This document shows, piece after piece, positions 28,903 to 48,914 of a stretch of 64,000 nt of DNA. The stretch is taken from positions 1,433-65,432 of the forward strand of contig CALRFQ010000002.1 of assembly GCA_943356675.1 (NCBI GenBank), given 5' to 3'. Source of the stretch: Candidatus Nomurabacteria bacterium. Lineage in GTDB: Bacteria > Patescibacteriota > Minisyncoccia > Phycocordibacterales > UBA9973. The notes under the pieces were generated by a model. That model was not told the DNA's origin. It saw only the letters and a program-made list of their open reading frames with translations, and did no database searches. Each line of letters opens with the position of its first letter. The stretch's first letter is position 1. Position numbers and translations under genes: made by a program.

Positions 28903-28990
28903 GTTTTATAAAGAGTGGTGGTAGAGAATTGGCTCCATGACCCCACAGCAACCCCGTTTACGGAAGGTGCTAATTCCAACCTTTATTAAC
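28903..28990 (+). promoter_or_regulatory. SAM-I-type riboswitch (SAM-I/IV-like variant without an obvious P4) in the metK leader
   Basis: Matches the SAM-I core: AGAGTGG...GGTAGAG...GGCTCC ATGA CCCC ACAGCAACC ... GGTGCTAATTCC. P1 pairs ATAAAG (about 28908) with CTTTAT (about 28981). It sits directly upstream of metK, with a GTGTATAAT -10 at about 28877-28885. Confidence 0.6.
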
Positions 28991-29052
28991 TTAAAGGAAA
29001 GATAATGTCATTATTTTTCCTTATTATTAGGAAATTTTTTTTGTTTAAATAT

Positions 29053-29994
29053 ATGAAAATCAAAACAGCAGAATTCGTGAGTCCAAAGCATCCAGACAAG
29101 ATTTGTGATTTTATCGCAGATTCTATTCTTGATGCATATTTATCAGGGGACAAGCGTAGTCGCGTAGCTATTGAAGTCATGGGCGGCCACAATCTTATTA
29201 CTATCAATGGCGAGGTTACTTCGCTTTCAGAGCCAGATATTGAAAAAGTAGTGAAGGATATTGTCGGCATAGATTACAGAGTGATTATAAATATCGTAAA
29301 GCAAAGCCCTGAGATCGCTCAAGGTGTAGACACTGGCGGTGCCGGCGACCAAGGTATAATGCTCGGCTACGCTACAAGTGAGACTGAAGAACTCCTACCT
29401 CTTGAATACAAGCTTGCAAGGAATTTGTGCGAGAAAGTTTACGAGAAGTATCCATACGATGGCAAGACTCAAGTGACTGTGAATGATGGCAAGGTGACGA
29501 CAGTCGTCGCAAGTTTCCAAAATTCTAAAAATGCAGATTTACTTCCTCTTGTGCAAAGTATCATCGAAGCAGATGAATACCTTATCAATCCTGCAGGTGA
29601 ATGGGTGCAAGGCGGATTCGATGCCGACACTGGTCTCTCCGGCCGCAAGCTCATAGTGGACAACTACGGTCCAGAAATTTCAATTGGAGGTGGTTCATAT
29701 TCAGGCAAGGATTATACAAAGGTGGATCGCTCAGGTGCATACATGGCTCGCAAAATTTCAGTTGATATTTTGAAAAAGCGAGGTGCCAAGGAAGTCCGCA
29801 CCAAGCTCGCATATGCTATAGGCAAAGCAGAGCCTGTAATGGCTATCTCAATAGTGGATGGAGTGGAAGAAGAGATTGCAGGCTACGACCTCACGCCAAA
29901 GGGTATTCGTGAATTCTTAAAGCTCGATGAAGTAATATATAAAGACACATGCACATGGGGCCACTATGGTCACAACTTCAATTGGGATAAATAG
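29053..29994 (+). CDS. metK: S-adenosylmethionine synthetase (compact MetK)
   Basis: HPDKICDFIADSILDA, GAGDQG and GGGSYSGKDYTKVDRSGAYMARK motifs. Start set at MKIKTAEF (29053); the upstream ORF-track extension MSLFFLIIRK... looks non-coding. Confidence 0.85.
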   Translation: MKIKTAEFVSPKHPDKICDFIADSILDAYLSGDKRSRVAIEVMGGHNLITINGEVTSLSEPDIEKVVKDIVGIDYRVIINIVKQSPEIAQGVDTGGAGDQGIMLGYATSETEELLPLEYKLARNLCEKVYEKYPYDGKTQVTVNDGKVTTVVASFQNSKNADLLPLVQSIIEADEYLINPAGEWVQGGFDADTGLSGRKLIVDNYGPEISIGGGSYSGKDYTKVDRSGAYMARKISVDILKKRGAKEVRTKLAYAIGKAEPVMAISIVDGVEEEIAGYDLTPKGIREFLKLDEVIYKDTCTWGHYGHNFNWDK

Positions 29995-37261: not shown

Positions 37262-39712
37262 ATGGAATTTTCAAAAAGTGATTATCTTTTAAAAATAAAA
37301 GGAATTATAATAAACGATTTAGGAATCAATGCAAATGAATATATTTCATGTTTTTTTGATGAAAATGAACCATATATTGAAATTAAAACTAGTTATGTTA
37401 AATATAAAATTATAATTGATAGGAGTGATTGTGGTTCTAGATATACAACAGAAAATACTAAAATAATAGTTATAGGGTCTAGTTTTTTAGAGCAAGAAGA
37501 TAAGGTTAAGTTTTTCCTAAGAAGGCAGTTTATAGCAGATGAAGAGCTTTTTAACTTATATCTTAAAAGAGGTAAAGAAATTAATCCGCATGAGGCACAA
37601 CATGTTGCCCTTTTAAATTTAGAAAACACTAGAAAAAGTGGGAACAATAAGGCATTAGCAGTACTTGCAACAGGTCTAGGTAAAACGATTTTATCAGCTT
37701 TGGATGTAAAAAATACAAAATCAGATAAAGTATTATTCATTGTTCATATCGATGAAATTTTAAAACAAACAAAGGAATCGTTTGAAATGGTTATGCCAGA
37801 AAGAAAAAATGATATGGGTTTTTTTACTGGAAAACAAAAGGATCGTGATAAAAAAATATTATTTGCCTCGATCCAGACTATTGGTAGGCAGAAACACATT
37901 GAATCATTTTCTCCGAATCATTTTGATTATATAATTATAGATGAAACCCATCACACTGCAGCACCCACATATAAAAAAATTTTTGACTATTTTCACCCTA
38001 ATTTCTTTCTTGGTTTAACAGCAACACCTGATAGAATGGATAAAAAAGATATATTGAATTTCTATGATCATAATGTTGTATTTGAAATGAATCAAGAAGA
38101 TGCAATAGAGCAAGGATATTTAACCCCATTTCAGTATTTGGGATTTAAGGATAATATTAACTATTCAAATATATTTTTTAACGGTTTCAAGTATGATATT
38201 AAGGATTTAAACAAGCATCTACTTATAGATGCACGTGATAATGAAATTATAAAAAAATATAAAGAATCAGCTGGTAATAGAAAAACTATAGGTTTTTGTG
38301 CCTCAATAGAACATGCAGAGAGGTGTGCTAAGAAGTTCAACGAGGCAGGGATAGATGCAATCTCAATTCATTCTAAAAGTGTTGGTCTAGATGGTTTTAA
38401 TGAAAAAGGAGTAAAGACTTTAATAAATCATTTCAGGCAAAATAAATGCCAGATTGTTTTTGTTGTAGATATGTTTAATGAAGGAATTGATATTCCTGAT
38501 GTTTCTTGTTTGTTATTTTTACGACCAACAGAGTCAAAGACAGTTTTTGTTCAACATATGGGTCGTGGTTTAAGAATATCTCCAGGCAAGGAAAATGTTT
38601 TAATTTTAGATTTTATTGGAAACTATCGTACTGCTAATTTAATTATTGAAGGATTGAATTTAAAAAATAATATTAGAGATTTAAAGAAATCAAAAAGGGA
38701 AGGCAAGGATGTATTTGCTTATAGTATTAATAATTGTGAAATAATTTTTGAATCTGAAGTGATAGATATTTTTAAAAATAATGAAGCTGCATATTCAGAA
38801 GAAATAAAAAATGAATTTATCTCAAAAGAGTGGATCGAATATTCTACTTATTTAAATAAATGGACAAAAGATAATTTATATTGGAAAAGGGGACAGCAAA
38901 ATCAATACTTTGAAGTTAACCTTGAGGCTATTAGGGTAATAAAAGATAATCCTAAAATAACAGAAAAAGATTTTATCGAAAAAATACAAGAAATTGTAAA
39001 AGAGAAATACCCCGGCAAAAATATGACTGCTGGATTTCGTGGATTAATGCTTTCAAAAATTAGTGGCTTTATTTCTGCTAATACACCGCTTAAACCAATG
39101 GAACCATTTATGAAAATTTGTGAAAAAACAAAAGATTTTAAAAACATTGAATTATACCGAGATGTTCTTACTTCACAGTTAGAAAAGATATTATATTGGA
39201 ATCCAATTTATGGCTCATATAATAAATACGTTGATTTATCTCATAGGGTGTCTTTTAATGACTTTAAAGTATATCCATTCTTCTTCATCTATGATGTATT
39301 GATTAGTCTTATTGATGACTATGGAGAAACAGAGCCATTTGTTAGTAGATTTGAATTTAATACTTTTATGGCTATCACTAAAGAGCATTCAGAGTCTAAA
39401 GATGTGCTAGAAAGGATCCTTCGTTTTAGGAAAGATGAGGAAATTCATCAAACCAAAAAATTATTAGACAAAAATAACAACATCGACCCGCGTTTTTATG
39501 GGATTGTGCATTATAATAAATATATTGAAAAAACAAAAATAGGTATAAAAATCAAGGACAAATACGTGGACGAGGTAAGAGAAAAAGTAAAAAAATTTAA
39601 AGAGCTTTACAATTCAGGTAAACTTATTTTCTATAAGGAAAATGACCAAGAATTATATGAAAATATGCTATACTCTAATCAAGATTTAATAAATTATTGC
39701 ACAGAGAAATAG
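37262..39712 (+). CDS. SF2 helicase (ResIII/DEAD-like core) with about 110-aa N-terminal and about 340-aa C-terminal domains of unknown function
   Basis: Motif I ATGLGKT, motif II IIDETHH, motif III LGLTATPDR, motif V VVDMFNEGIDIPDV and motif VI QHMGRGLR. The C-terminal extension may be DUF3427-like; I cannot verify that without a search. Confidence 0.75.
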   Translation: MEFSKSDYLLKIKGIIINDLGINANEYISCFFDENEPYIEIKTSYVKYKIIIDRSDCGSRYTTENTKIIVIGSSFLEQEDKVKFFLRRQFIADEELFNLYLKRGKEINPHEAQHVALLNLENTRKSGNNKALAVLATGLGKTILSALDVKNTKSDKVLFIVHIDEILKQTKESFEMVMPERKNDMGFFTGKQKDRDKKILFASIQTIGRQKHIESFSPNHFDYIIIDETHHTAAPTYKKIFDYFHPNFFLGLTATPDRMDKKDILNFYDHNVVFEMNQEDAIEQGYLTPFQYLGFKDNINYSNIFFNGFKYDIKDLNKHLLIDARDNEIIKKYKESAGNRKTIGFCASIEHAERCAKKFNEAGIDAISIHSKSVGLDGFNEKGVKTLINHFRQNKCQIVFVVDMFNEGIDIPDVSCLLFLRPTESKTVFVQHMGRGLRISPGKENVLILDFIGNYRTANLIIEGLNLKNNIRDLKKSKREGKDVFAYSINNCEIIFESEVIDIFKNNEAAYSEEIKNEFISKEWIEYSTYLNKWTKDNLYWKRGQQNQYFEVNLEAIRVIKDNPKITEKDFIEKIQEIVKEKYPGKNMTAGFRGLMLSKISGFISANTPLKPMEPFMKICEKTKDFKNIELYRDVLTSQLEKILYWNPIYGSYNKYVDLSHRVSFNDFKVYPFFFIYDVLISLIDDYGETEPFVSRFEFNTFMAITKEHSESKDVLERILRFRKDEEIHQTKKLLDKNNNIDPRFYGIVHYNKYIEKTKIGIKIKDKYVDEVREKVKKFKELYNSGKLIFYKENDQELYENMLYSNQDLINYCTEK

Positions 39713-39740
39713 ATAATTTATATATCTTAAATTTATTTTC

Positions 39741-41330
39741 ATGAAAAAAATCATTAAAAACATATCAGCTGAATCGCATCCTTCTCATTATATGATGCAT
39801 AAATATTGGGGACGAAAGCCACACAATGTTGTGAGTGATTATATTTTAAATTACACAAAACCAGGGGATGTGGTCCTTGACCCATTTATGGGTAGTGGTG
39901 TTGTTGTGATTGAATCCCTAAAGCATAATCGTAAAGCAATCGGGATAGACCTAAACCCGATGGCTTGTTTTATTACGGAAAACACAATCAATAAAGTTGA
40001 TCTTGAAGACTTTGAAAAAACTTTTTTTCAGATCTACGAGCATAATTACAAAAAATTTATCGATTTATATGATACGAAATGTCCAAAGTGTGAACATCAT
40101 GTACCATTTGAAAACTCAATCTGGGACCTCGACGAATTTGTAAAAGTTAGAGCAATTTGTCCTATACACGGTAAATTTATAAAAAAAACAGATTCATACG
40201 ATCAAAAAGTTTTAAAAAAATCCTTAGAAACTTTCCATAAACTCGACAAAGAAAATAAAATATTCTATCCAAAAGATGAGATTCTAAAATTCGTAAAAAG
40301 AAATGGTAAGAGTAGGCTCGATGAGTTTTTTTCAGAGAGAGCGCTTTCTGTGCTTGGCTCAATAATAAAAGATATAGATACTGTTGAAAATCCTGAGACA
40401 AAGAGTCTTCTTCTTTTATGTTTTACTTCTATGTTGCCAAACGTATCAAAAATGATTCCTGGCAATACTGAGTCTGTGAACGGTAAATCAGGATGGGTAA
40501 TAAGCAAACTATGGGCTCCAAAAGTGCACACTGAAAAGAATGTTTTTAATAGTTTCAAACACAGATTTACAAAAGTTAAAAAAGGAAAACAAGAATTAGT
40601 TGGAGTTTTTGAGTCAAAGAACGCTAAAATATTAAATATTGACGCAACAAATCTTAGCGCAGTTAAATCTGAATCAGTAGATTATATTTTTACTGACCCT
40701 CCTTATGGAGACAGTATTGCTTATTTTGGACTCAGTATGTTTTGGAATGGATGGCTTAAAAACAAAGTCAATTATGAAAGCGAGATTATATATGACCCAT
40801 ATCGTAATAAAAAATACGAGGATTATTCTTCACGAATGAAAAAAGTATACTCCGAATTATTCAGGGTTTTGAAGGATGAAAAATATCTTTCTTTCACTTT
40901 CCATAATAGAAACTTAAATATCTGGAAAGCAGTAATGGATGCTGTTACTGGTGGTGGGTTTCATCTTGTGAATTTGGTCTATCAAGAGCAGGCTGTTGCG
41001 TCAGGGACACAAGGCTTAAACCGAAATAACACCCTGCGTGGAGACTTTGTATACAACTTCACTAAGAATACAAAAATAAAAACTATCGATAAGATATATG
41101 ACCATATGGATAGTAAAAAAGAGATCGTAAAAAAAGTTCAGTTGTGGATACAAAAAAATGATGGTTTTATAACCTCGGATTCTTTATACGAGAAACTTAT
41201 TCCATTTATTGTTGAAAAAAATTTGTACAGCGACGAAGATGGACAGGTCATGAACATTGAAGGCTTACTCAAGCAGAGTTTTAATTATAAGCAACTCCAC
41301 ACAGAAGAATATGGCTGGCAAGAAAAATAA
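39741..41330 (+). CDS. DNA amino-methyltransferase (N6-adenine or N4-cytosine) with internal Cys4 zinc-ribbon
   Basis: N-terminal HPSHYMMHKYWGRKP (motif X-like) and DPFMGSGVV (motif I, FxGxG). TDPPYGD (motif IV) lies about 270 aa downstream. CPKCEHH...CPIHG sits in the intervening target-recognition region. Confidence 0.75.
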   Translation: MKKIIKNISAESHPSHYMMHKYWGRKPHNVVSDYILNYTKPGDVVLDPFMGSGVVVIESLKHNRKAIGIDLNPMACFITENTINKVDLEDFEKTFFQIYEHNYKKFIDLYDTKCPKCEHHVPFENSIWDLDEFVKVRAICPIHGKFIKKTDSYDQKVLKKSLETFHKLDKENKIFYPKDEILKFVKRNGKSRLDEFFSERALSVLGSIIKDIDTVENPETKSLLLLCFTSMLPNVSKMIPGNTESVNGKSGWVISKLWAPKVHTEKNVFNSFKHRFTKVKKGKQELVGVFESKNAKILNIDATNLSAVKSESVDYIFTDPPYGDSIAYFGLSMFWNGWLKNKVNYESEIIYDPYRNKKYEDYSSRMKKVYSELFRVLKDEKYLSFTFHNRNLNIWKAVMDAVTGGGFHLVNLVYQEQAVASGTQGLNRNNTLRGDFVYNFTKNTKIKTIDKIYDHMDSKKEIVKKVQLWIQKNDGFITSDSLYEKLIPFIVEKNLYSDEDGQVMNIEGLLKQSFNYKQLHTEEYGWQEK

Positions 41331-42435
41331 ACTAAAAATTATAGACCTATTCGCGGGGGTGGGAGGCATCTCATCTGGCTTTAAAAAGGCTGGTTTTAAT
41401 GTTGTGTCAGCGAACGAGTATAAATTTGAGATTGCGAACACTTATATTAAAAATCATCCAGGTACAAAGATGATTGTCGAGGATATAACGAAAGTGAAGT
41501 CAAAGGATTTGCTTAACGGAGAGCATAATATTGATGTGATTGTTGGTGGTCCACCATGCCAAGGGTTCAGTATGGCTGGTAGGCGTATACGAGGAGGAGG
41601 GGGTGCATTCCTAAAGGACCCTCGCAATGAACTCTTTAAAGAATTTATACGGATAGTAAAGGAGATTAAGCCAAAGGTATTTGTAATGGAAAATGTAGCA
41701 GCAATGCTTAATATACACGGTGGTGCTGTTCGAAATGAGATAATCAAGAAATTTAAGGAAATAGGATATGAGACAAAAGTTCATGTTCTTCTTGCAGCAG
41801 AATACGGAGTACCTCAGATGAGAAAGCGTGCCGTATTCATTGGAAACAGAATAGGAGTAGACCCTGAAGAATTCTTCCCAGAAAAAACTCACGGTCCCAA
41901 GAATGCAAAACCATATGTAACCGTGGCCGAAACCATTCTTGACTTACCGAAAGTGCTATCAGGAGAAGGAGAGTTTGAATCAGAATACGGTCCGGTTAAA
42001 GCACTTTCTGAGTATCAACAGGAAAGACGTGGAAAGAGCGAAAAATTATACAACCATCAAGCTACTCACCACGATCCACGCATTGTCGAATTACTCAAAA
42101 ATATCAAGGAAGGAGAGGGTAGAACAAGCTTACCGAAGGAGCTACAGACGAAATCGGTGCATAGTGGCGCGTTTGGTAGAATGAATAGAAACAAGCCCGC
42201 ATATACGATCACAACGCGTTTTGACACCCCTTCCGTTGGTCGTGTAACTCATCCATCACAGCACCGGGCTTTAACTCCACGAGAGGCTGCGCGAATCCAG
42301 TCCTTCGATGATGATTTTGTATTTTATGGTAGCAAGAGTTCCGTTGGGATACAGATAGGAAATTCTGTACCTCCATTATTAGCCTATGCGATTGCTCAAA
42401 AAATTTTAAAAGTTTTAAATAAAAATCATGATTAA
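41314..42435 (+). CDS. DNA (cytosine-5)-methyltransferase
   Basis: Motif I IDLFAGVGG, motif IV GGPPCQGFS, motif VI ENV, and C-terminal QIGNSVPP. The start at MAGKKNKLKIIDLFAG overlaps the upstream gene's end (coupled). Confidence 0.85.
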   Translation, partial: AGKKNKLKIIDLFAGVGGISSGFKKAGFNVVSANEYKFEIANTYIKNHPGTKMIVEDITKVKSKDLLNGEHNIDVIVGGPPCQGFSMAGRRIRGGGGAFLKDPRNELFKEFIRIVKEIKPKVFVMENVAAMLNIHGGAVRNEIIKKFKEIGYETKVHVLLAAEYGVPQMRKRAVFIGNRIGVDPEEFFPEKTHGPKNAKPYVTVAETILDLPKVLSGEGEFESEYGPVKALSEYQQERRGKSEKLYNHQATHHDPRIVELLKNIKEGEGRTSLPKELQTKSVHSGAFGRMNRNKPAYTITTRFDTPSVGRVTHPSQHRALTPREAARIQSFDDDFVFYGSKSSVGIQIGNSVPPLLAYAIAQKILKVLNKNHD

Positions 42436-43780
42436 TGACTATAAAAAATATTTAGAAGGGAAAGGCACTAAAAACTTTTGGAAAAAAGCAAAGCAAAAGG
42501 AATACACTAGAGATGTTGTAAATAAGATTTACAAGGAATTGACGTCTGGTTTTAGTAAATTAACAACTCGTAGCAGCATTACTTTACGATACTTAGGTTT
42601 AATAATTAATCTAGGCGGAGACAAGCTTCAAATCTCAAATGCGGGAGATACTTTTCTAAAATCATTATACAAACAAAAAATTCTTGACGAGCAGGTCATG
42701 AAAGTTTATCTAGATTGCCCTGAATTAAATGAAAATCTTTCAATAAAGATTGCGCCAATGGAGGTTCTTTTGAAGATTCTTTATTCGGTAGACTATGTTT
42801 CATTTGAGGAGTATCAATTATTTGTATGTTGGACGAATGATAAGAGCGAAATATCTCTTGTTATTGATTTAATTGAGGAATATAGAAATAGTGATTCAAA
42901 AGAGTCTTATTTAGAAATTTTAAAAGATAAAAGTCAAGAATTAAGTATCGTAGACTTCGCCGATGCTGTAAAAAGATTTTTTAATACACTGATTATTTCT
43001 TCATATATTCAAAAAGAAAGTGACAAGATCATCCCAAAACTTTCAAAGAAAGATATTGAATTAATATTAGAAAGTTTTTCTTTGAGAGATTTTAGCGAGG
43101 AGGGATACTTTGATTATTTAAATACGAATGATGGATGGCAAATTTACACAAGTAATCCTAATTATTTAAGAGTTATAGAGAGTTTAGAGCAAAAAACAAC
43201 GGAAGAACAAGAAGAAATTGTAAATAAAATAACTGGAGGATTAAGTTTTCCAGATCTTTCTAAAGTTAAACCACAGATATTAGAAATGCAGATTGATGAA
43301 AGCATTGAACCAACAATAAAAACAAAAAGGGTAAAAAGTGGTACAGCAAAAAAAATCGATTTTGAATTAAGAGATAGTAATAATCGGGCAGCAGGTGATT
43401 TTGCAGAGAAGATAGTTATCAAACATGAAATCGAAGAATTAAAAGAAACAAACCCTGAGCTTATTAATCGTATTAAACAAGTGTCCTTAGAAGATGATAC
43501 ATTAGGATACGATATCTTATCTTTAACGTCAGATTCATATGAAAAACACATTGAAGTGAAAGCTGTAAGATATAGACCAGCAATAAAATTTAGATTTTTT
43601 ATTTCCGAAAATGAAGTATCGATTGCAAAAGAAGATCCTAATTATTATCTATATATTGTTTTTGATTATTTGTCGGAATCACCTTTTATTTATATGATGC
43701 CTAATCCTTTCATGAATAAAATTCCTGGAGTACAGATCGACCCAATAAAATATCTTGTGACAGTAAAAATTAAAAAATAA
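42428..43780 (+). CDS. hypothetical protein with C-terminal DUF3883-like (PD-(D/E)xK-type) nuclease domain
   Basis: The C-terminal 130 aa carry AAGDFAEKIVIKHE...GYDILSL...IEVKAV...FFISENEVSIAKEDPNYYLYIV, matching my recollection of the DUF3883 core (GYDI...IEVK). The N-terminal 300 aa are unassigned. Its start overlaps the upstream gene's stop. Confidence 0.5.
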   Translation: MINDYKKYLEGKGTKNFWKKAKQKEYTRDVVNKIYKELTSGFSKLTTRSSITLRYLGLIINLGGDKLQISNAGDTFLKSLYKQKILDEQVMKVYLDCPELNENLSIKIAPMEVLLKILYSVDYVSFEEYQLFVCWTNDKSEISLVIDLIEEYRNSDSKESYLEILKDKSQELSIVDFADAVKRFFNTLIISSYIQKESDKIIPKLSKKDIELILESFSLRDFSEEGYFDYLNTNDGWQIYTSNPNYLRVIESLEQKTTEEQEEIVNKITGGLSFPDLSKVKPQILEMQIDESIEPTIKTKRVKSGTAKKIDFELRDSNNRAAGDFAEKIVIKHEIEELKETNPELINRIKQVSLEDDTLGYDILSLTSDSYEKHIEVKAVRYRPAIKFRFFISENEVSIAKEDPNYYLYIVFDYLSESPFIYMMPNPFMNKIPGVQIDPIKYLVTVKIKK

Positions 43781-43785
43781 ATTTT

Positions 43786-44640
43786 ATGGAAAATATAAGT
43801 AAAAAAATAACATTATTTTTAAATGATGGATTACCAAAAGGTATTCGTGAAGTATCTATTGATCAATGGAGTGGTGGGGCAATTTGTGGACCAAGAAATA
43901 AAATTGAGGAAATTTTAAAATTTGAACAGTTGAATGGTCCTTGCGTTTATTTTTTAATTGGTGAATCTGATGAAAGTGACTTATTGAATGTATATGTGGG
44001 TGAAGCTGACTCATTTAGTCAAAGAGTTAAAGATCATTTAAGAAAAAAAGATTGGTGGCAGAACGTGGTGGTCTTTTTTGGTTATAATAATAACCCAAGT
44101 AAGACTGGTATTGAATATCTCGAGTCTTTTATCTACTCAGATTTAATAAATGCAGCTAGGTGTATTTTGGAGAATGGAAATAAGCCCGCTCTGCCCAATA
44201 TATCTAAACATGACATACCTGGACTGCATATATTTTATGAAAATATTAAATTAATTATGCCAGTTATGGGTTTTGATATTTTTGCAGTAGATATAAAAGA
44301 AGATAAAATAAATGAAAGCCAACATATTTTTTGTGAAGGTAAAGGTTCAAAATCTGAAGCTATTCTTTTGGATGATGGGAAGGTTCTTGTTTTAAAAGGT
44401 TCAACTGCAATAAAAGAAAATGCTCCAAGTTTTGAAAAACATAATTATAAAAAAATCAAAGATAATTTATTAAAAATTGATAGACTTGTTGAGGTTGGTG
44501 ATTATCTATCTTTTTCAGAAGATTATCTTTTTGATAGTTTAAGCGCCGCCGCTGCGGTAATATTAGCAAGGTCTGCACAAGGGCCAAAAGAGTGGAAATT
44601 TAAGACTGGTAAGTCTGTTAAAGATTTTATCGAGAATTAA
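43786..44640 (+). CDS. GIY-YIG-like nuclease domain protein with DUF4357-like C-terminal domain
   Basis: N-terminal CVYFLIGESD...LNVYVGEADSFSQRVKDHL resembles a GIY-YIG core. The C-terminal VLVLKGS...SAAAAVILARSAQGPKEWK resembles DUF4357. Confidence 0.5.
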   Translation: MENISKKITLFLNDGLPKGIREVSIDQWSGGAICGPRNKIEEILKFEQLNGPCVYFLIGESDESDLLNVYVGEADSFSQRVKDHLRKKDWWQNVVVFFGYNNNPSKTGIEYLESFIYSDLINAARCILENGNKPALPNISKHDIPGLHIFYENIKLIMPVMGFDIFAVDIKEDKINESQHIFCEGKGSKSEAILLDDGKVLVLKGSTAIKENAPSFEKHNYKKIKDNLLKIDRLVEVGDYLSFSEDYLFDSLSAAAAVILARSAQGPKEWKFKTGKSVKDFIEN

Positions 44641-46221
44641 ATGAAACTTCTAACCAAAACAGATTTTATACTATATCGTGAATGTCCGAATAATGTTTGG
44701 GTTAAAATTCATATGCCCGAGGAGTATTCTAAATTCCCAGTATCAGATTTTGAAAAGTCTTTAGGGGTAATGGGTAACGAGGTTGAAGAGCTTGCTCGGG
44801 GTATGTTCCCAGGTGGAGTCATGGTAGCGGGTCGCGGAGACGAGGCTCGTGAATATACAAAGAAGTTGATTGCCGAGAAAGCTCCTGTGATTTTCCAAGC
44901 TGTGTGTGCTACGGATAAATACTTGGCTGCGGGTGATGTCTTGGTCTGGAATACTGATGCCTGCATGTATGACTTGTATGAAATAAAAATGTCTTCAACT
45001 AAGGAAGAGAATGACGATGAAGAAGAGGAAGGCAAACCAAAAAAGGTAAATAAGAAAAAGGAATTGCAATACGAATACGATATTGCTTTCCAAACCAATG
45101 TATTTTCTATGTGTGGTGTACCATTGAATAATAAATATCTTGTCCGACTAAATAAAGAATATATTAAAATAGGTAATTTGGATTTTTCAGAAAATAAACT
45201 TTTTATCATAGAAGACAAAACTGAGTCAATAAATGAGATGATAGAAAATGTAAAATTTGAAATGGGTCAAGCTTTTGAGTATCTTTCTCACGATGCAATT
45301 CCAAGTGGTCATTGTCCTTGCTATTACAAAGGGCGTAGCTCTCATTGCACAACTTTTACTTTTACGAACCCTGATGTGCCAGCATATAGCGTGCATGATT
45401 TGAATAGAATTGGTAATAGTAAAGCTTATTTGAAAGAACTTCTTGATGCAAATATTTTAACAATAGATAATGTAATTGAGTCTGAAATACCAAAACCTTC
45501 AAAAACAAAAGACGGAAGACCTGGTAAACCAAGAAAGTTGAACCAAGTAGTAATTCACAAGTCTAAAGAGCCCATTATTGATCTTGATGCGATAAAAGCT
45601 GAATTAAATTCTTTAACATTTCCGCTTTATTTCCTGGATTACGAGACGTATCCAACGGCTATACCAGTTTTTGATGGATATCATCCTTATCAGCACATCG
45701 TATTTCAATATTCTATTCATGTACTCAAAGATAAGGATGCCGAATTAGAACATTATGAAATGCTTGTTTTAGAAGGGGATCCAGCGGAGAAAATTGTCGC
45801 CGGTTTGAGGGAAGTCATAGGTGACACAGGTAGTGTAATATCTTGGTACAAAGCATTTGAAAATGCGAGAAATAGAGAACTGTCCCGTTTGGTTCCACTT
45901 CAATTTGAATTCTTGCAAAGTGTGATAAGTAGAACTTATGATCTGATGGATATTGTAGAACAACAGTATTATGTCCATCACGGTTTTAAGGGTAGCTCGT
46001 CGATCAAAAAGGTGCAACCTATTTTAGCCCCAGAATTTTCATACAAGGATTTGGATGTTCAGAGTGGAACTGATGCAATAGAATCGTATCGGCAAATAGC
46101 ACAAGGGGAATTGGATGGTAAAGATTTGGAGGAAAAGAAAAGGCAAATGCTGAAATACTGTGGTTATGATACTGAGATAATGTATATCTTGTGGAAATTT
46201 TTTACAGACTTAGTTAAATAA
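44641..46221 (+). CDS. DUF2779-like protein (Cas4/RecB-like N-terminal nuclease fold with Cys cluster, plus RNase-H-like C-terminal region)
   Basis: FILYRECPNNVW start, Cys cluster HCPCYYKGRSSHC, and central LYFLDYETYPTAIPVFDGYHPYQHIVFQYSIH block. Its start follows the upstream stop with no gap. Confidence 0.55.
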   Translation: MKLLTKTDFILYRECPNNVWVKIHMPEEYSKFPVSDFEKSLGVMGNEVEELARGMFPGGVMVAGRGDEAREYTKKLIAEKAPVIFQAVCATDKYLAAGDVLVWNTDACMYDLYEIKMSSTKEENDDEEEEGKPKKVNKKKELQYEYDIAFQTNVFSMCGVPLNNKYLVRLNKEYIKIGNLDFSENKLFIIEDKTESINEMIENVKFEMGQAFEYLSHDAIPSGHCPCYYKGRSSHCTTFTFTNPDVPAYSVHDLNRIGNSKAYLKELLDANILTIDNVIESEIPKPSKTKDGRPGKPRKLNQVVIHKSKEPIIDLDAIKAELNSLTFPLYFLDYETYPTAIPVFDGYHPYQHIVFQYSIHVLKDKDAELEHYEMLVLEGDPAEKIVAGLREVIGDTGSVISWYKAFENARNRELSRLVPLQFEFLQSVISRTYDLMDIVEQQYYVHHGFKGSSSIKKVQPILAPEFSYKDLDVQSGTDAIESYRQIAQGELDGKDLEEKKRQMLKYCGYDTEIMYILWKFFTDLVK

Positions 46222-46265
46222 CCTATGAATATTCAGTAAAGATGCTATAATAGAAACGTGCGACA

Positions 46266-46395
46266 ATTTAATAGTTTATATTAAGAGTGGTGGTAGAGAA
46301 TTGGCTCAATGACCCCACAGCAACCTGCATTTGTAAGGTGCTAAATCCAACCAGACGCGAAAGCGTCAGGAAAGATAAGTCTTGCGTCTAGTCCA
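46266..46395 (+). promoter_or_regulatory. second SAM-I-like riboswitch copy (core near-identical to the metK leader) with its own TGCTATAAT promoter at about 46243-46251
   Basis: AGAGTGGTGGTAGAGAATTGGCTCAATGACCCCACAGCAACC...GGTGCTAAATCCAACC differs from the metK copy by 1 nt over 42 nt. It is followed by a GACGC-GAAA-GCGTC hairpin. I could not unambiguously pair the P1 3' strand. Confidence 0.45.
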
Positions 46396-46437
46396 CGCTT
46401 GAAAATCTTTCCTCATTATTTGAGGAATTTTTTATTT

Positions 46438-46701
46438 ATGGAAATAATTAAAAAGGAGATAAAGTTGTGCGTAGTTTGTAATAATTTTAGGGGATTGGTT
46501 GAAGAGAGGTATAATGGAGAGGTTCCAGTACATTGTGCTTGTGATCTAGAGAAAGAAAGGATGAATTATGGTAAATGGCGTAGTCCTTGCATGATAAGTC
46601 CTAATGGGGATAAGCTTTGGTGGACGCCTATTTCAGATCATAAAAAGGCCGATGGTAGATGGTATCATGTCGCATACTTCGCCAGACCCGCATTAAATTA
46701 A
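46438..46701 (+). CDS. small Cys-rich hypothetical protein (87 aa) downstream of riboswitch copy 2
   Basis: Start taken at MEIIKKEIK, preceded by GAGGAA 8 nt upstream; the ORF track gives 46399. Contains CVVC...HCAC and WW motifs. No family recognised. Confidence 0.35.
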   Translation: MEIIKKEIKLCVVCNNFRGLVEERYNGEVPVHCACDLEKERMNYGKWRSPCMISPNGDKLWWTPISDHKKADGRWYHVAYFARPALN

Positions 46702-47156
46702 TATCGAATATAAATATTGATTTAGATAAATTACGTAAAAAAATTGAAGAGGAAGAAAAAAATACTAAAAGTAATATAGAAATTTTTAGGGATAATGTTC
46801 ACAAAAAGGAGATTAAAGAAATTTCAGAGAATAAGGAGGTATTTGAAAATGAATTTATAAAGGAGCTTGAGATTGAAATATATTCAAAAGAGCCAACAAG
46901 AAAAGATAAATTTATTTTAAAATTTGCTGAATTAATTAAAAAACTAGGATTATTTAATTTTCTAATTGAATTTGCGTACCTTCACGAAAAAATTGTAAGC
47001 GAAATTCAACATAAATTAAATTTGTCTAAAACTGATTTAAAGGAAAATTTTAAAATTAGGACTATAATATTGCTATGTTTTCAGTTTGTAGTAGCATTAG
47101 TTCTAGTTTTATTAACTAAAATCATTAAAATTATTTTAATTCATTTATTTAAATAA
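46659..47156 (+). CDS. hypothetical protein (165 aa), Lys/Glu-rich with C-terminal TM helix
   Basis: ORF overlapping the previous one by 43 nt. Confidence 0.35.
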   Translation: MVSCRILRQTRIKLISNINIDLDKLRKKIEEEEKNTKSNIEIFRDNVHKKEIKEISENKEVFENEFIKELEIEIYSKEPTRKDKFILKFAELIKKLGLFNFLIEFAYLHEKIVSEIQHKLNLSKTDLKENFKIRTIILLCFQFVVALVLVLLTKIIKIILIHLFK

Positions 47157-47188
47157 GTTTTTGTGATTATCAAGGACCGTCCTTGCTA

Positions 47189-47406
47189 AAGTTGATGACA
47201 AATCTCATGATAGGGAAGACAGGATAGAACGCGATGGTATAGTAGAAGGGATTTTGAAAGACGCTGGGATGCCACTTTTACGATTTGAAAACCATGGATC
47301 ATTTAGCAAAGATGAAATAGAAAAAACATTCTGGTATTCTGCAGAATACCAGAATGTTTTTTATTTATCTATCTATCTATTACTATTCTCTAATTCGCTC
47401 GAATAG
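47189..47406 (+). pseudogene. remnant 3' fragment of a DUF2726-family gene (copy 1)
   Basis: In-frame translation VDDKSHDREDRIERDGIVEGILKDAGMPLLRFENHGSFSKDEIEK matches the conserved DUF2726 C-terminus (SHD...ERD...AGIPLLRF). There is no start codon or N-terminal portion. Confidence 0.4.
47325..47358. repeat. perfect 34-bp palindrome element B (aacattctggtattctgcagaataccagaatgtt), copy 1 of 3, flanked by an A6 and a T6 run
   Basis: Its reverse complement is identical. The A-tract/T-tract flanks make it terminator-like. Other copies at 49114 and 49940. Confidence 0.8.
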
Positions 47407-47474: not shown

Positions 47475-47512
47475 ATAACATTCTCACATTCTCAAGAATG
47501 TGAGAATGTTAT
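47475..47512. repeat. palindromic repeat element A, copy 2
   Basis: aaaaataacattctcacattctcaagaatgtgagaatgttatttt. Confidence 0.8.
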
Positions 47513-47915: not shown

Positions 47916-48914
47916 ATGAAGAAGAAGGTAATTAAAACTAAAGACAAAAATCAAGGCATGGTTATATATCAGGCTAAATCCGGAGCAATCGAACTTCGCG
48001 GGGATTTTAAGCATGAGACAGTATGGGCAACACAGGATCAAATTGCTGAACTTTTCATGACTACAAAGCAAAACATTAGTCAGCACTTGAAAAGTATTTT
48101 TGAAACAAAAGAATTAAATCAGAATTCAGTTGTAAAGGATTTCTTTACAACTGCTAAAGATGGTAAGCAATATAAGGTTAAATTTTATAATTTAGATGTT
48201 CTACTTTCTGTCGGGTATAGAGTTAATTCCAGAAATGCAACCCAGTTTCGTATTTGGGCCACAAAGACACTGAAAGAGCATTTAGTGAAAGGCTACACTA
48301 TAAACAAGAAAGTCATACTTAAAAATTATGATTCTTTTATTGAGACAGTAAATAGCATTCAGGCACTCCTTCCAGAGCACGTAGTCCTTGATCCGAAAGC
48401 AATTCTTGATTTGGTGAAGGAATATTCGGTCACATGGGCTAAGCTTGATGCTTATGATAAAGACCAATTGTTTACCAAAGGCCAAACAAAGAAAAAAGTA
48501 AAACTTGCCGGACAAGAACTATTGGACGCTATTTCAGAATTGAAAAATGAATTAATGAAGAAAGACGAAGCTACAGATATGTTTGCAATGGAGAGGTTTG
48601 CTGGTGGCGTGGAAGGTATAGTGGGTAACGTGATGCAAGCATTTGGCGGGCAAGATGTGTATCTTACTGTCGAAGAAAAGGCAGCTCACTTACTATATTT
48701 TATGGTAAAGAATCATCCGTTCACAGATGGTAATAAACGTTCGGGTGCTTTTGCGTTTATTTGGTTCCTGCGGAAAGTGGGTGTGCTTGGTGCTAAAAAC
48801 ATAAATCCTTCAGGCCTAACAGCTATCACACTCCTTATTGCTGAAAGCGATCCAAAGCATAAAGACAAAATGGTTGCCCTAGTTGTTGAGCTTTTGCAAG
48901 TAAATAAAAAATAA
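47916..48914 (+). CDS. RhuM-family N-terminal domain fused to Fic/Doc domain (putative AMPylating/phosphorylating toxin-like protein)
   Basis: The N-terminal YNLDVLLSVGYRVNSRNATQFRIWATK is RhuM-like. The C-terminal HPFTDGNKRSG matches the Fic motif HPFx(D/E)GN(G/K)R. TGTTATAAT lies 6 nt before the ATG. Confidence 0.75.
   Translation: MKKKVIKTKDKNQGMVIYQAKSGAIELRGDFKHETVWATQDQIAELFMTTKQNISQHLKSIFETKELNQNSVVKDFFTTAKDGKQYKVKFYNLDVLLSVGYRVNSRNATQFRIWATKTLKEHLVKGYTINKKVILKNYDSFIETVNSIQALLPEHVVLDPKAILDLVKEYSVTWAKLDAYDKDQLFTKGQTKKKVKLAGQELLDAISELKNELMKKDEATDMFAMERFAGGVEGIVGNVMQAFGGQDVYLTVEEKAAHLLYFMVKNHPFTDGNKRSGAFAFIWFLRKVGVLGAKNINPSGLTAITLLIAESDPKHKDKMVALVVELLQVNKK

Follow-up and report, generated by a model that had tools for sequence, protein, structure and literature searches.

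RESULTS

A second SAM-I riboswitch precedes a small cysteine-rich gene

The DNA analyzed here is a stretch of 64,000 nt from a contig of Candidatus Nomurabacteria bacterium, hereafter the window (the term always denotes the whole stretch, not the feature under study), and all coordinates follow its numbering. A window-wide Rfam scan returned two full-length matches to the SAM-I (S-box) riboswitch class, whose ligand is S-adenosylmethionine (SAM). One lies in the leader of the SAM synthetase gene metK; the second lies upstream of a gene for an 87-aa, zinc-ribbon-like protein that follows a defense-type gene block (Table 1). This second riboswitch and the small gene behind it are the subject of the present analysis. 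Loci with homologs of the small gene in other genomes or metagenome contigs are referred to by L-numbers (L001, etc.).

Table 1. Coordinates of the features in the window and of the corresponding elements at other loci
Feature	Position	Strand	Basis or description
Candidate extended -10 promoter element, TGCTATAAT (TATAAT at 46246-46251)	46243-46251	+	Sequence and leader alignment
SAM-I (S-box) riboswitch aptamer, second copy	46275-46381	+	Rfam RF00162, 59.5 bits
Predicted antiterminator hairpin, AGGAAAGAU (46368-46376) with AUCUUUCCU (46405-46413)	46368-46413	+	ViennaRNA, -16.2 kcal/mol
Predicted intrinsic terminator, UUCCUCA-uuauu-UGAGGAA then U6 (hairpin 46409-46427)	46409-46433	+	Terminator scan, minimum-free-energy and constrained folds
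Gene for 87-aa zinc-ribbon-like protein (ATG to stop)	46438-46701	+	Homologs, profile search, ratio of nonsynonymous to synonymous substitution rates (dN/dS)
Downstream open reading frame (ORF), 165 aa as called	46659-47156	+	ORF list; homolog in L001
Paralogous SAM-I aptamer, metK leader	28903-29008	+	RF00162, 73.4 bits
metK	29053-29994	+	metK domains by Pfam
Defense-type island	37262-46221 and 47916-48914		ResIII helicase, N6/N4 and C5 methyltransferases, NOV_C nuclease, GIY-YIG/DUF4357, DUF2779; RhuM/Fic downstream
SAM-I upstream of small-gene homolog	L001-3, L007, L011-13, L014	same strand	Close relatives
SAM-I upstream of small-gene homolog	L017	same strand	Candidatus Falkowbacteria, 48% protein identity
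SAM-I upstream of small-gene homolog	L018	same strand	Candidatus Kuenenbacteria, 45% protein identity
SAM-I upstream of small-gene homolog	16 of 19 nonredundant metagenome loci	same strand	Including high-GC L038
SAM-I upstream of small-gene homolog	L041/42	same strand	32% protein identity
HD_4 gene	L017:2978-3757; L041:4001-4795; L007:2431-3225 (minus strand); P0052 contig		

The second aptamer matched positions 1 to 108 of the 108-position RF00162 model without truncation (E = 3e-11), well above the gathering score of 44.4 bits, and retained this assignment in clan competition (CL00012) against SAM-IV and SAM-I/IV. A sequence-only reading that preceded our work had proposed a second SAM-I copy from two repeats of the metK leader, both of which were recovered. 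The 42-mer AGAGTGGTGGTAGAGAATTGGCTC[C/A]ATGACCCCACAGCAACC, found at 28912-28953 with 0 mismatches, recurs at 46284-46325 with 1 mismatch (0 chance matches expected), and GGTGCTAA[T/A]TCCAACC at 28966-28981 recurs at 46337-46352, which is not expected by chance either. The Rfam search thus bears out the assignment that those repeats had suggested.

All four helices of the junction were present in the cmscan alignment. P1 is formed by 46277-46282 with 46374-46379, P2 and P3 lie within 46288-46345, and P4 occupies 46351-46370 and carries a GAAA loop. The P2-loop UUGG (46301-46304) pairs with CCAA (46347-46350) in J3/4 to make the pseudoknot. The core nucleotides of the SAM pocket and kink-turn region (AGAG, AUGA, GCAACC, GGUGCUAA, and GAAAGAUA) matched the upper-case model consensus throughout and were invariant or nearly so in alignment A4, a correspondence at the level of sequence, kink-turn geometry apart. 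P1 had been described as not cleanly pairable. It does close, but over a short stretch, in which UAUU (46279-46282) and GAUA (46374-46377) are paired; an A.A mismatch and a U.G pair come next. P1 of the metK copy is equally short. The segment GACGC-GAAA-GCGTC, previously taken for an additional hairpin of the expression platform, is aptamer helix P4.

Comparison of 18 orthologous aptamers supported this structure. When the SAM-I fold including the pseudoknot was imposed, 92.5% of the cells were paired, versus 28 to 42% in slid-register controls, and compensatory changes occurred at 13 pairs, with every helix represented. Pairing reached 89.8% in P1, 81.9% and 100% in the two segments of P2, 99.1% in P3, and 81.5% in P4. 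The pseudoknot was paired in 100% of the cases, and three of its four pairs covary (UUGG/CCAA, CUGG/CCAG, CUAG/CUAG, and CUGA/UCAG among the orthologs). In every respect open to computation, the RNA at this site is a SAM-I aptamer, and it is predicted to bind SAM.

The leader is predicted to fold as an OFF switch

A TG-n-TATAAT extended -10 element lies upstream of both SAM-I copies, in agreement with the recurring TATAAT context reported by the sequence-only reading, and equivalent elements are kept in the orthologous small-gene leaders and in metK leaders. A simple sigma-70 scan did not list the element of the second copy because it lacks a good -35 hexamer. We take the element for a putative promoter of the small gene, given its sequence and its position in the leader alignment.

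Downstream of the aptamer, the antiterminator shares nucleotides with two other elements: P1, whose 3' strand is overlapped by the antiterminator 5' strand, and the terminator, whose 5' arm is overlapped by the antiterminator 3' strand. The second leader therefore holds an intact, mutually exclusive pair of alternative folds, the feature that the earlier reading had singled out for checking. Enclosed by the antiterminator is a small hairpin (46384-46398) whose CUAGUCC loop is invariant and whose 4-bp stem covaries (GCGU/ACGC, ACGU/ACGU, AUGC/GCAU, and GUGU/ACAC) in eight related leaders (window, L001, L003, L007, L011, L014, L024, and L029). Neither metK leaders nor the other class of expression platform contain this hairpin. 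The sequence-only reading was therefore right that the platform has an element which the metK copy lacks, but that element is this inner hairpin and not the segment now assigned to P4. The 3' arm of the terminator contains GAGGAA (46422-46427), 10 nt before the ATG (11 to 12 nt from the GAGG/GAGGA core) and likely the Shine-Dalgarno sequence, so that termination and masking of the ribosome-binding site would coincide. This terminator/antiterminator layout is the same in all 19 orthologous leaders compared. In constrained folds without ligand, the antiterminator conformation was slightly favored over P1 plus terminator (-43.2 versus -40.9 kcal/mol), which is the behavior expected of an OFF switch that SAM would tip toward termination.

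These features outline a mechanism that the modeled folds support well. Transcription would begin at the leader's own extended -10 promoter. With SAM bound, P1 would close and withhold GAUAAG from the antiterminator, allowing the terminator to form; the transcript would then end, with the GAGGAA ribosome-binding site buried. When SAM is scarce, the antiterminator would form instead and the 87-aa gene would be transcribed and translated, probably along with the next ORF. The small protein would thus be made together with SAM synthetase when SAM is low.

The sequence-only reading had also raised the possibility of a variant or decaying copy, in which case the aptamer would be nonfunctional and the ORF constitutive or silent. 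The score of the second aptamer is indeed below that of the metK copy (59.5 versus 73.4 bits), and three positions at the outer end of P1 are noncanonical. Yet the score exceeds the curated threshold by 15 bits and falls within the 48 to 66 bits of the orthologs, whose architecture is the same, all helices and the pseudoknot are maintained through compensatory changes, the terminator and the antiterminator are intact and conserved, and the metK copy manages with as short a P1. Bit score, covariation over 18 leaders, and intact alternative folds all contradict decay, which we consider extremely improbable.

The small gene encodes a conserved protein with a predicted zinc ribbon

The 87-aa product carries the motifs C11xxC14 and H32-C33-A-C35. 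Its 12 close homologs (60 to 100% identity) are all full length and share the N terminus MEI(I/L)KK; C11, C14, C33, and C35 are invariant in them, and E23, N26, W62, and H77 are invariant or nearly so. When 1.84 billion cluster representatives were searched with a profile, 60 members of the family were found; C11, C14, N26, C35, and H77 are invariant in the wide alignment. Comparison with orthologs (57 pairs) gave dN/dS values of 0.06 to 0.17 (median, 0.12) with synonymous sites near saturation, which points to strong purifying selection on the ORF. The sequence-only reading had allowed for the ORF proving noncoding in homologous loci; 12 full-length homologs and a dN/dS of about 0.1 rule this out. 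An internal TTG start after AAGGAG (46452-46457) was likewise discarded, since residues 1 to 10 (MEIIKKEIxL) are conserved in all close homologs and modeled as a confident strand. Some high-GC homologs have N-terminal extensions and what look like signal peptides; these were disregarded as probable over-extensions of the ORF calls through the leader.

The window protein matched no family in Pfam or PADLOC at E ≤ 0.1 and none in PHROGs, and its NCBIfam matches were noise (E of 0.11 to 0.2, far under the cut-offs). Distant members searched against the same family libraries gave no match either, except for a DUF123/GIY-YIG-type domain fused to one of them (P0061). No homolog was found in IMG/VR viral contigs or, by tblastn, in GenBank phages, and a phage origin of the gene was rejected on these grounds. 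AlphaFold2 models from alignments of 12 and 20 sequences had predicted local distance difference test (pLDDT) scores of 72.7 and 72.5, respectively. The N-terminal half is confidently modeled as three strands around the CxxC and CxC motifs, followed by a helix. Foldseek searches against the PDB (best E = 2.0) and viral models returned nothing at or below 1e-3, and the sole match of the profile among PDB sequences, mitochondrial bL36 (6ywe_0), was not significant (E = 0.68).

The small size and the N-terminal strand-CxxC-strand-strand-CxC pattern resemble a bL36-type zinc ribbon, but neither the sequence nor the structure comparison places the protein in the bL36 family. Restriction-alleviation proteins of the Lar type are small and Cys-rich, as is the 87-aa protein, which is also often found near restriction-modification (R-M) genes; the Pfam search mentioned above did not, however, match it to Lar. 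Neither bL36 nor Lar-type proteins have a counterpart of the Trp-rich C-terminal half (WRSPCMISPNGDKLWWTPIS..DG.WWH.P.F). We therefore assign the protein to an uncharacterized family with a predicted zinc ribbon.

The riboswitch-gene pair is conserved across Patescibacteria lineages

A locus was scored positive when a SAM-I match at or above the gathering score lay upstream of a small-gene homolog on the same strand (Table 1). Counting each organism once, about 19 loci carry the riboswitch, 2 lack it, and 1 is disrupted. The riboswitch-bearing loci derive from Nomurabacteria, Falkowbacteria, Kuenenbacteria, and metagenomes, and their protein identity to the window protein extends from 100% down to 32%. 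Retrieving loci by pattern did not work with the divergent alignment A2, which was too variable. The contigs of L008 and L033 start within the terminator tail, with the aptamers cut off, and L021 has too little upstream sequence for a judgment.

In some relatives the small gene shares the riboswitch with metK itself. The order in L006 is riboswitch, metK, a 66-aa ORF, and the small gene, and L004 and L005 have the same operon. In L015, a 3' remnant of metK (37 aa, 59% identical to the C terminus of the window MetK; L015:3344-3505) lies directly upstream of the small gene and behind a 1113-aa gene, which suggests a former operon of metK and the small gene whose metK was destroyed by an insertion. 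From these gene orders, Patescibacteria appear to keep the small family under SAM-I either directly or within the metK operon. The window MetK has only 313 aa, with its N-terminal and central domains shortened according to the Pfam coordinates.

The two loci that lack SAM-I, L032 and L040, have a different leader (L032:385-545 and L040:1-225). This leader spans about 150 to 190 nt and has a sigma-70-like promoter, a terminator, and the common motif GCGGTGAG[T/C]TAGAT, also given as GCGGTGAGYTAGAT. The two sequences matched no Rfam family and showed no clear common fold (n = 2); they may represent an undescribed cis-regulatory RNA before the same gene family.

In L007 (1623-1853) and L008 (339-590), the riboswitch and the zinc-ribbon gene are separated by a second conserved small ORF of 76 to 83 aa (MKN(I/F)KEY...AQREL.L.F.EVFELFINN), which would therefore also be under SAM control. 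It has no family match, and none of the operon partners in other lineages (66, 71, 76 to 83, 124 to 150, 130 to 166, 139, and 143 aa) gave an informative one.

The leader is orthologous to small-gene leaders elsewhere

The near-identity of the two 42-nt cores had led the sequence-only reading to suggest a recent duplication. Accordingly, a copy of the metK leader would have landed before an unrelated small ORF behind a defense operon and placed it accidentally under SAM control. The cores are one base apart, and the TGnTATAAT and ACAAYTDAATAG context is common to both copies. The metK leader further resembles the second copy in riboswitch class, nearly identical P2 and P3 5' strand, terminator logic, and ribosome-binding site in the 3' arm. 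Comparison of whole leaders, from promoter to start codon, nevertheless revealed 84 to 85% identity of the window small-gene leader to those of L001 and L003 and 77% to that of L011, versus only 57% to the metK leader of the same genome. The aptamers alone gave the same ranking (88 to 89% to the L001 and L003 orthologs versus 72% to the own metK aptamer).

Derived features agree with these figures. A 5-nt insert (CGTGC) after the -10 element is common only to the window, L001, and L003. The P4 sequence CCAGAC-GNRA-GUC-GG and the CUAGUCC hairpin are common to the window and its orthologs and are not found in the metK leaders of the window and L006; distal P3, P4, and the expression platform of the second copy are likewise unlike metK and like the orthologs. 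Moreover, the small-gene leaders of L003 and L029 contain exactly the same 42-mer, L029 with a protein only 66% identical; the 42-mer is thus a clade consensus. The pair of riboswitch and gene is kept down to 32% protein identity. Recent duplication is contradicted by the identity matrix, by the features shared with orthologs, and by the exact 42-mer in other organisms, and we regard it as hardly tenable. The promoter type and the ACAAYTDAATAG motif point to a common ancestry of both leaders, with a split that seems older than the divergence of these lineages; the metK leader would then be an old paralog of the second leader.

The downstream ORF

The 165-aa ORF behind the small gene is coiled-coil-like and has a hydrophobic C-terminal segment. 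It is probably cotranscribed with the small gene because the two overlap, no terminator intervenes, and L001 has a homolog directly after its small gene (39% identity, E = 1e-25). This fits the suggestion of the sequence-only reading that SAM control may extend to the next ORF. The true start is uncertain because the homolog aligns only from residue 20. The only match in PADLOC was a weak one to LeoC (E = 1.8e-4).

Alternatively, the key regulated product could be this membrane-anchored protein, or the pair could act as an accessory of methionine or SAM uptake, with the small protein as a minor partner. The overlap, the hydrophobic segment, and the conservation in L001 are compatible with that idea, and transport genes are common in SAM-I regulons (PMC3766115). 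However, the 165-aa family is confined to the closest relatives (tblastn matches only in L001-3 and L016), other lineages have an S49 peptidase, HD_4, methyltransferases, or unrelated ORFs after the small gene, and it is the small gene itself that is the conserved partner of the riboswitch. A leading role of the downstream product is thus very doubtful.

Farther downstream, a DUF2726-type gene remnant (47161-47330; Pfam E = 7e-6, C-terminal part) has an in-frame stop near its start, which suggests gene decay at the island edge. A perfect 19-bp palindrome between A6 and T6 (AAAAAACATTCTGGTATTCTGCAGAATACCAGAATGTTTTTT; 47321-47362) has the look of a bidirectional terminator, and a related hairpin lies at 47486-47509.

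Defense genes surround the small gene in variable combinations

In the island that adjoins the small gene, the ResIII helicase is type IV-like according to PADLOC, the NOV_C nuclease is PD-T4-1-like, the GIY-YIG/DUF4357 protein is of type PDC-S14, and the RhuM/Fic protein is of type PDC-S23. The sequence-only reading had speculated about a tie of the small gene to the methyltransferase operon or the defense locus. Its relatives have metK or quite different R-M and defense genes beside it: metK and an S49 peptidase in L004, an R-M module of two methyltransferases and an AlwI-type nuclease in L008, a MutH-like gene and a C5 methyltransferase in L014, a PLD/SNF2 helicase and an Eco57I-type enzyme in L007, HsdR, GmrSD, and PDDEXK genes in L041, and HsdR, YgjP, and DUF2779 on the P0052 contig. 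The window and its nearest relative, L001, have DUF2779 alone in common (81.6% identity), and their other flanking genes differ. Since unrelated defense modules flank the conserved gene on either side and tRNA genes are often nearby, as in a typical variable island, the adjacency to two methyltransferases is best explained as positional, with defense genes inserting at this locus.

Two further neighbors recur. Three lineages (window 44641-46221, L001:567-2147, and the P0052 contig) encode a DUF2779 protein upstream of the pair of riboswitch and gene, and one of them has a small protein with only about 34% identity; this adjacency may reflect conserved synteny or a functional link. An HD_4 gene (RelA/SpoT-type HD hydrolase) adjoins the small gene in four divergent lineages (Table 1) and is absent from the window.

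The R-M surroundings invite another explanation, in which the small protein is a low-SAM safeguard. Host DNA would become undermethylated once starvation, or a phage enzyme that degrades SAM, lowered the SAM level, and the zinc-ribbon factor would then restrain restriction, boost methylation, or trigger defense. Of 10 annotated contexts, 6 (window, L007, L008, L014, L041, and the P0052 contig) have clear R-M or defense genes at a distance of no more than about 5 kb. The L008 module starts only 10 nt after the small gene, the distant homolog P0061 is fused to a DUF123/GIY-YIG-type domain, and the OFF switch would allow expression exactly at low SAM. Against this, the systems found on the two sides of the gene are unrelated in type, as in a variable island, and in L004-6 the gene sits in the metK operon by an S49 peptidase, with no R-M genes nearby. 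The protein also has no match in PADLOC or PHROGs, no homolog in the phage and viral collections, and no Pfam similarity to known restriction-alleviation families. In the library searched, we found no paper joining SAM riboswitches with R-M or with Patescibacteria, which also go by the name candidate phyla radiation (CPR). Overall, a link to R-M is unlikely, although less so than the other alternatives.

DISCUSSION

The leader of the small gene (46243-46437) is most probably a functional SAM-I OFF switch, inherited vertically with a small zinc-ribbon family that Patescibacteria (CPR) keep under SAM-I control. The aptamer, its covarying helices, the alternative folds, the orthology of the leaders, the conserved pairing of riboswitch and gene, and the selection on the coding sequence converge on this reading. 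They also agree with the proposal of the sequence-only reading that the 87-aa ORF is under SAM control, since a second SAM-I copy with its own putative promoter and terminator lies upstream.

Several observations weigh against this interpretation. P1 of the second copy is weak: it has four pairs in a row, of which one is U.G, and an A.A mismatch. The locus tally draws on short metagenome contigs, some of them from closely related organisms, and SAM-I is absent from L032 and L040, the only loci with sufficient upstream sequence that lack it. As for the protein, it has neither a family nor a fold match that would assign a function by homology, and its AlphaFold2 model is of moderate quality, with the Trp-rich C terminus poorly defined (pLDDT < 50). 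Finally, the enrichment of R-M genes near the small gene could go beyond an insertion hotspot and reflect a functional link.

As a riboswitch, the second copy is of a known class. It shares with the SAM-I leaders of Firmicutes (e.g., Bacillus subtilis metK and yitJ) the four-helix junction, the pseudoknot between the P2 loop and J3/4, the core nucleotides, and an exclusive antiterminator/terminator arrangement that uses the 3' strand of P1, here predicted to act as a transcriptional OFF switch. It differs from them in its Patescibacteria/CPR host, its very short and AU-rich P1, and, within its subclade, the antiterminator inner hairpin with an invariant CUAGUCC loop. The main difference is the target, an orphan 87-aa zinc-ribbon protein instead of a known gene of methionine, cysteine, or SAM metabolism or transport. 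Known SAM-I regulons comprise methionine and cysteine metabolism, transport, and metK, and when a gene under a SAM riboswitch has no assignment, membership in one of these pathways is usually presumed (PMC3766115). The conserved target gene described here is new.

With metK, the small gene makes up a minimal SAM regulon of which its product is the conserved second member. The protein may therefore aid SAM or methionine homeostasis, for instance, by acting as a partner of MetK, which is unusually short, or by binding a ligand related to SAM. The shortened domains of MetK are of possible relevance to the former idea. A bolder proposal is that the protein acts as the effector of a "low-SAM alarm" in R-M-rich CPR genomes, protecting undermethylated host DNA from the cell's own restriction enzymes or activating defense; a milder version would make it an accessory subunit of the truncated CPR MetK. 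We give this proposal rather little credence. If it were true, restriction control would for the first time be seen coupled to the level of a cofactor by a riboswitch.

Patescibacteria have tiny genomes that encode few regulators, and a large part of their proteins has no assigned function. Our analysis corrects the tempting reading of the riboswitch as a recent local duplicate tied to the neighboring methyltransferases. It reveals instead a riboswitch of known ligand locked to one orphan family over several CPR lineages, sometimes within the metK operon. Such a link is among the few means of giving an orphan protein a physiological setting, "needed when SAM is low," without cultivation. It also defines a minimal SAM regulon of metK and the small gene and names a concrete target for biochemistry in these organisms.

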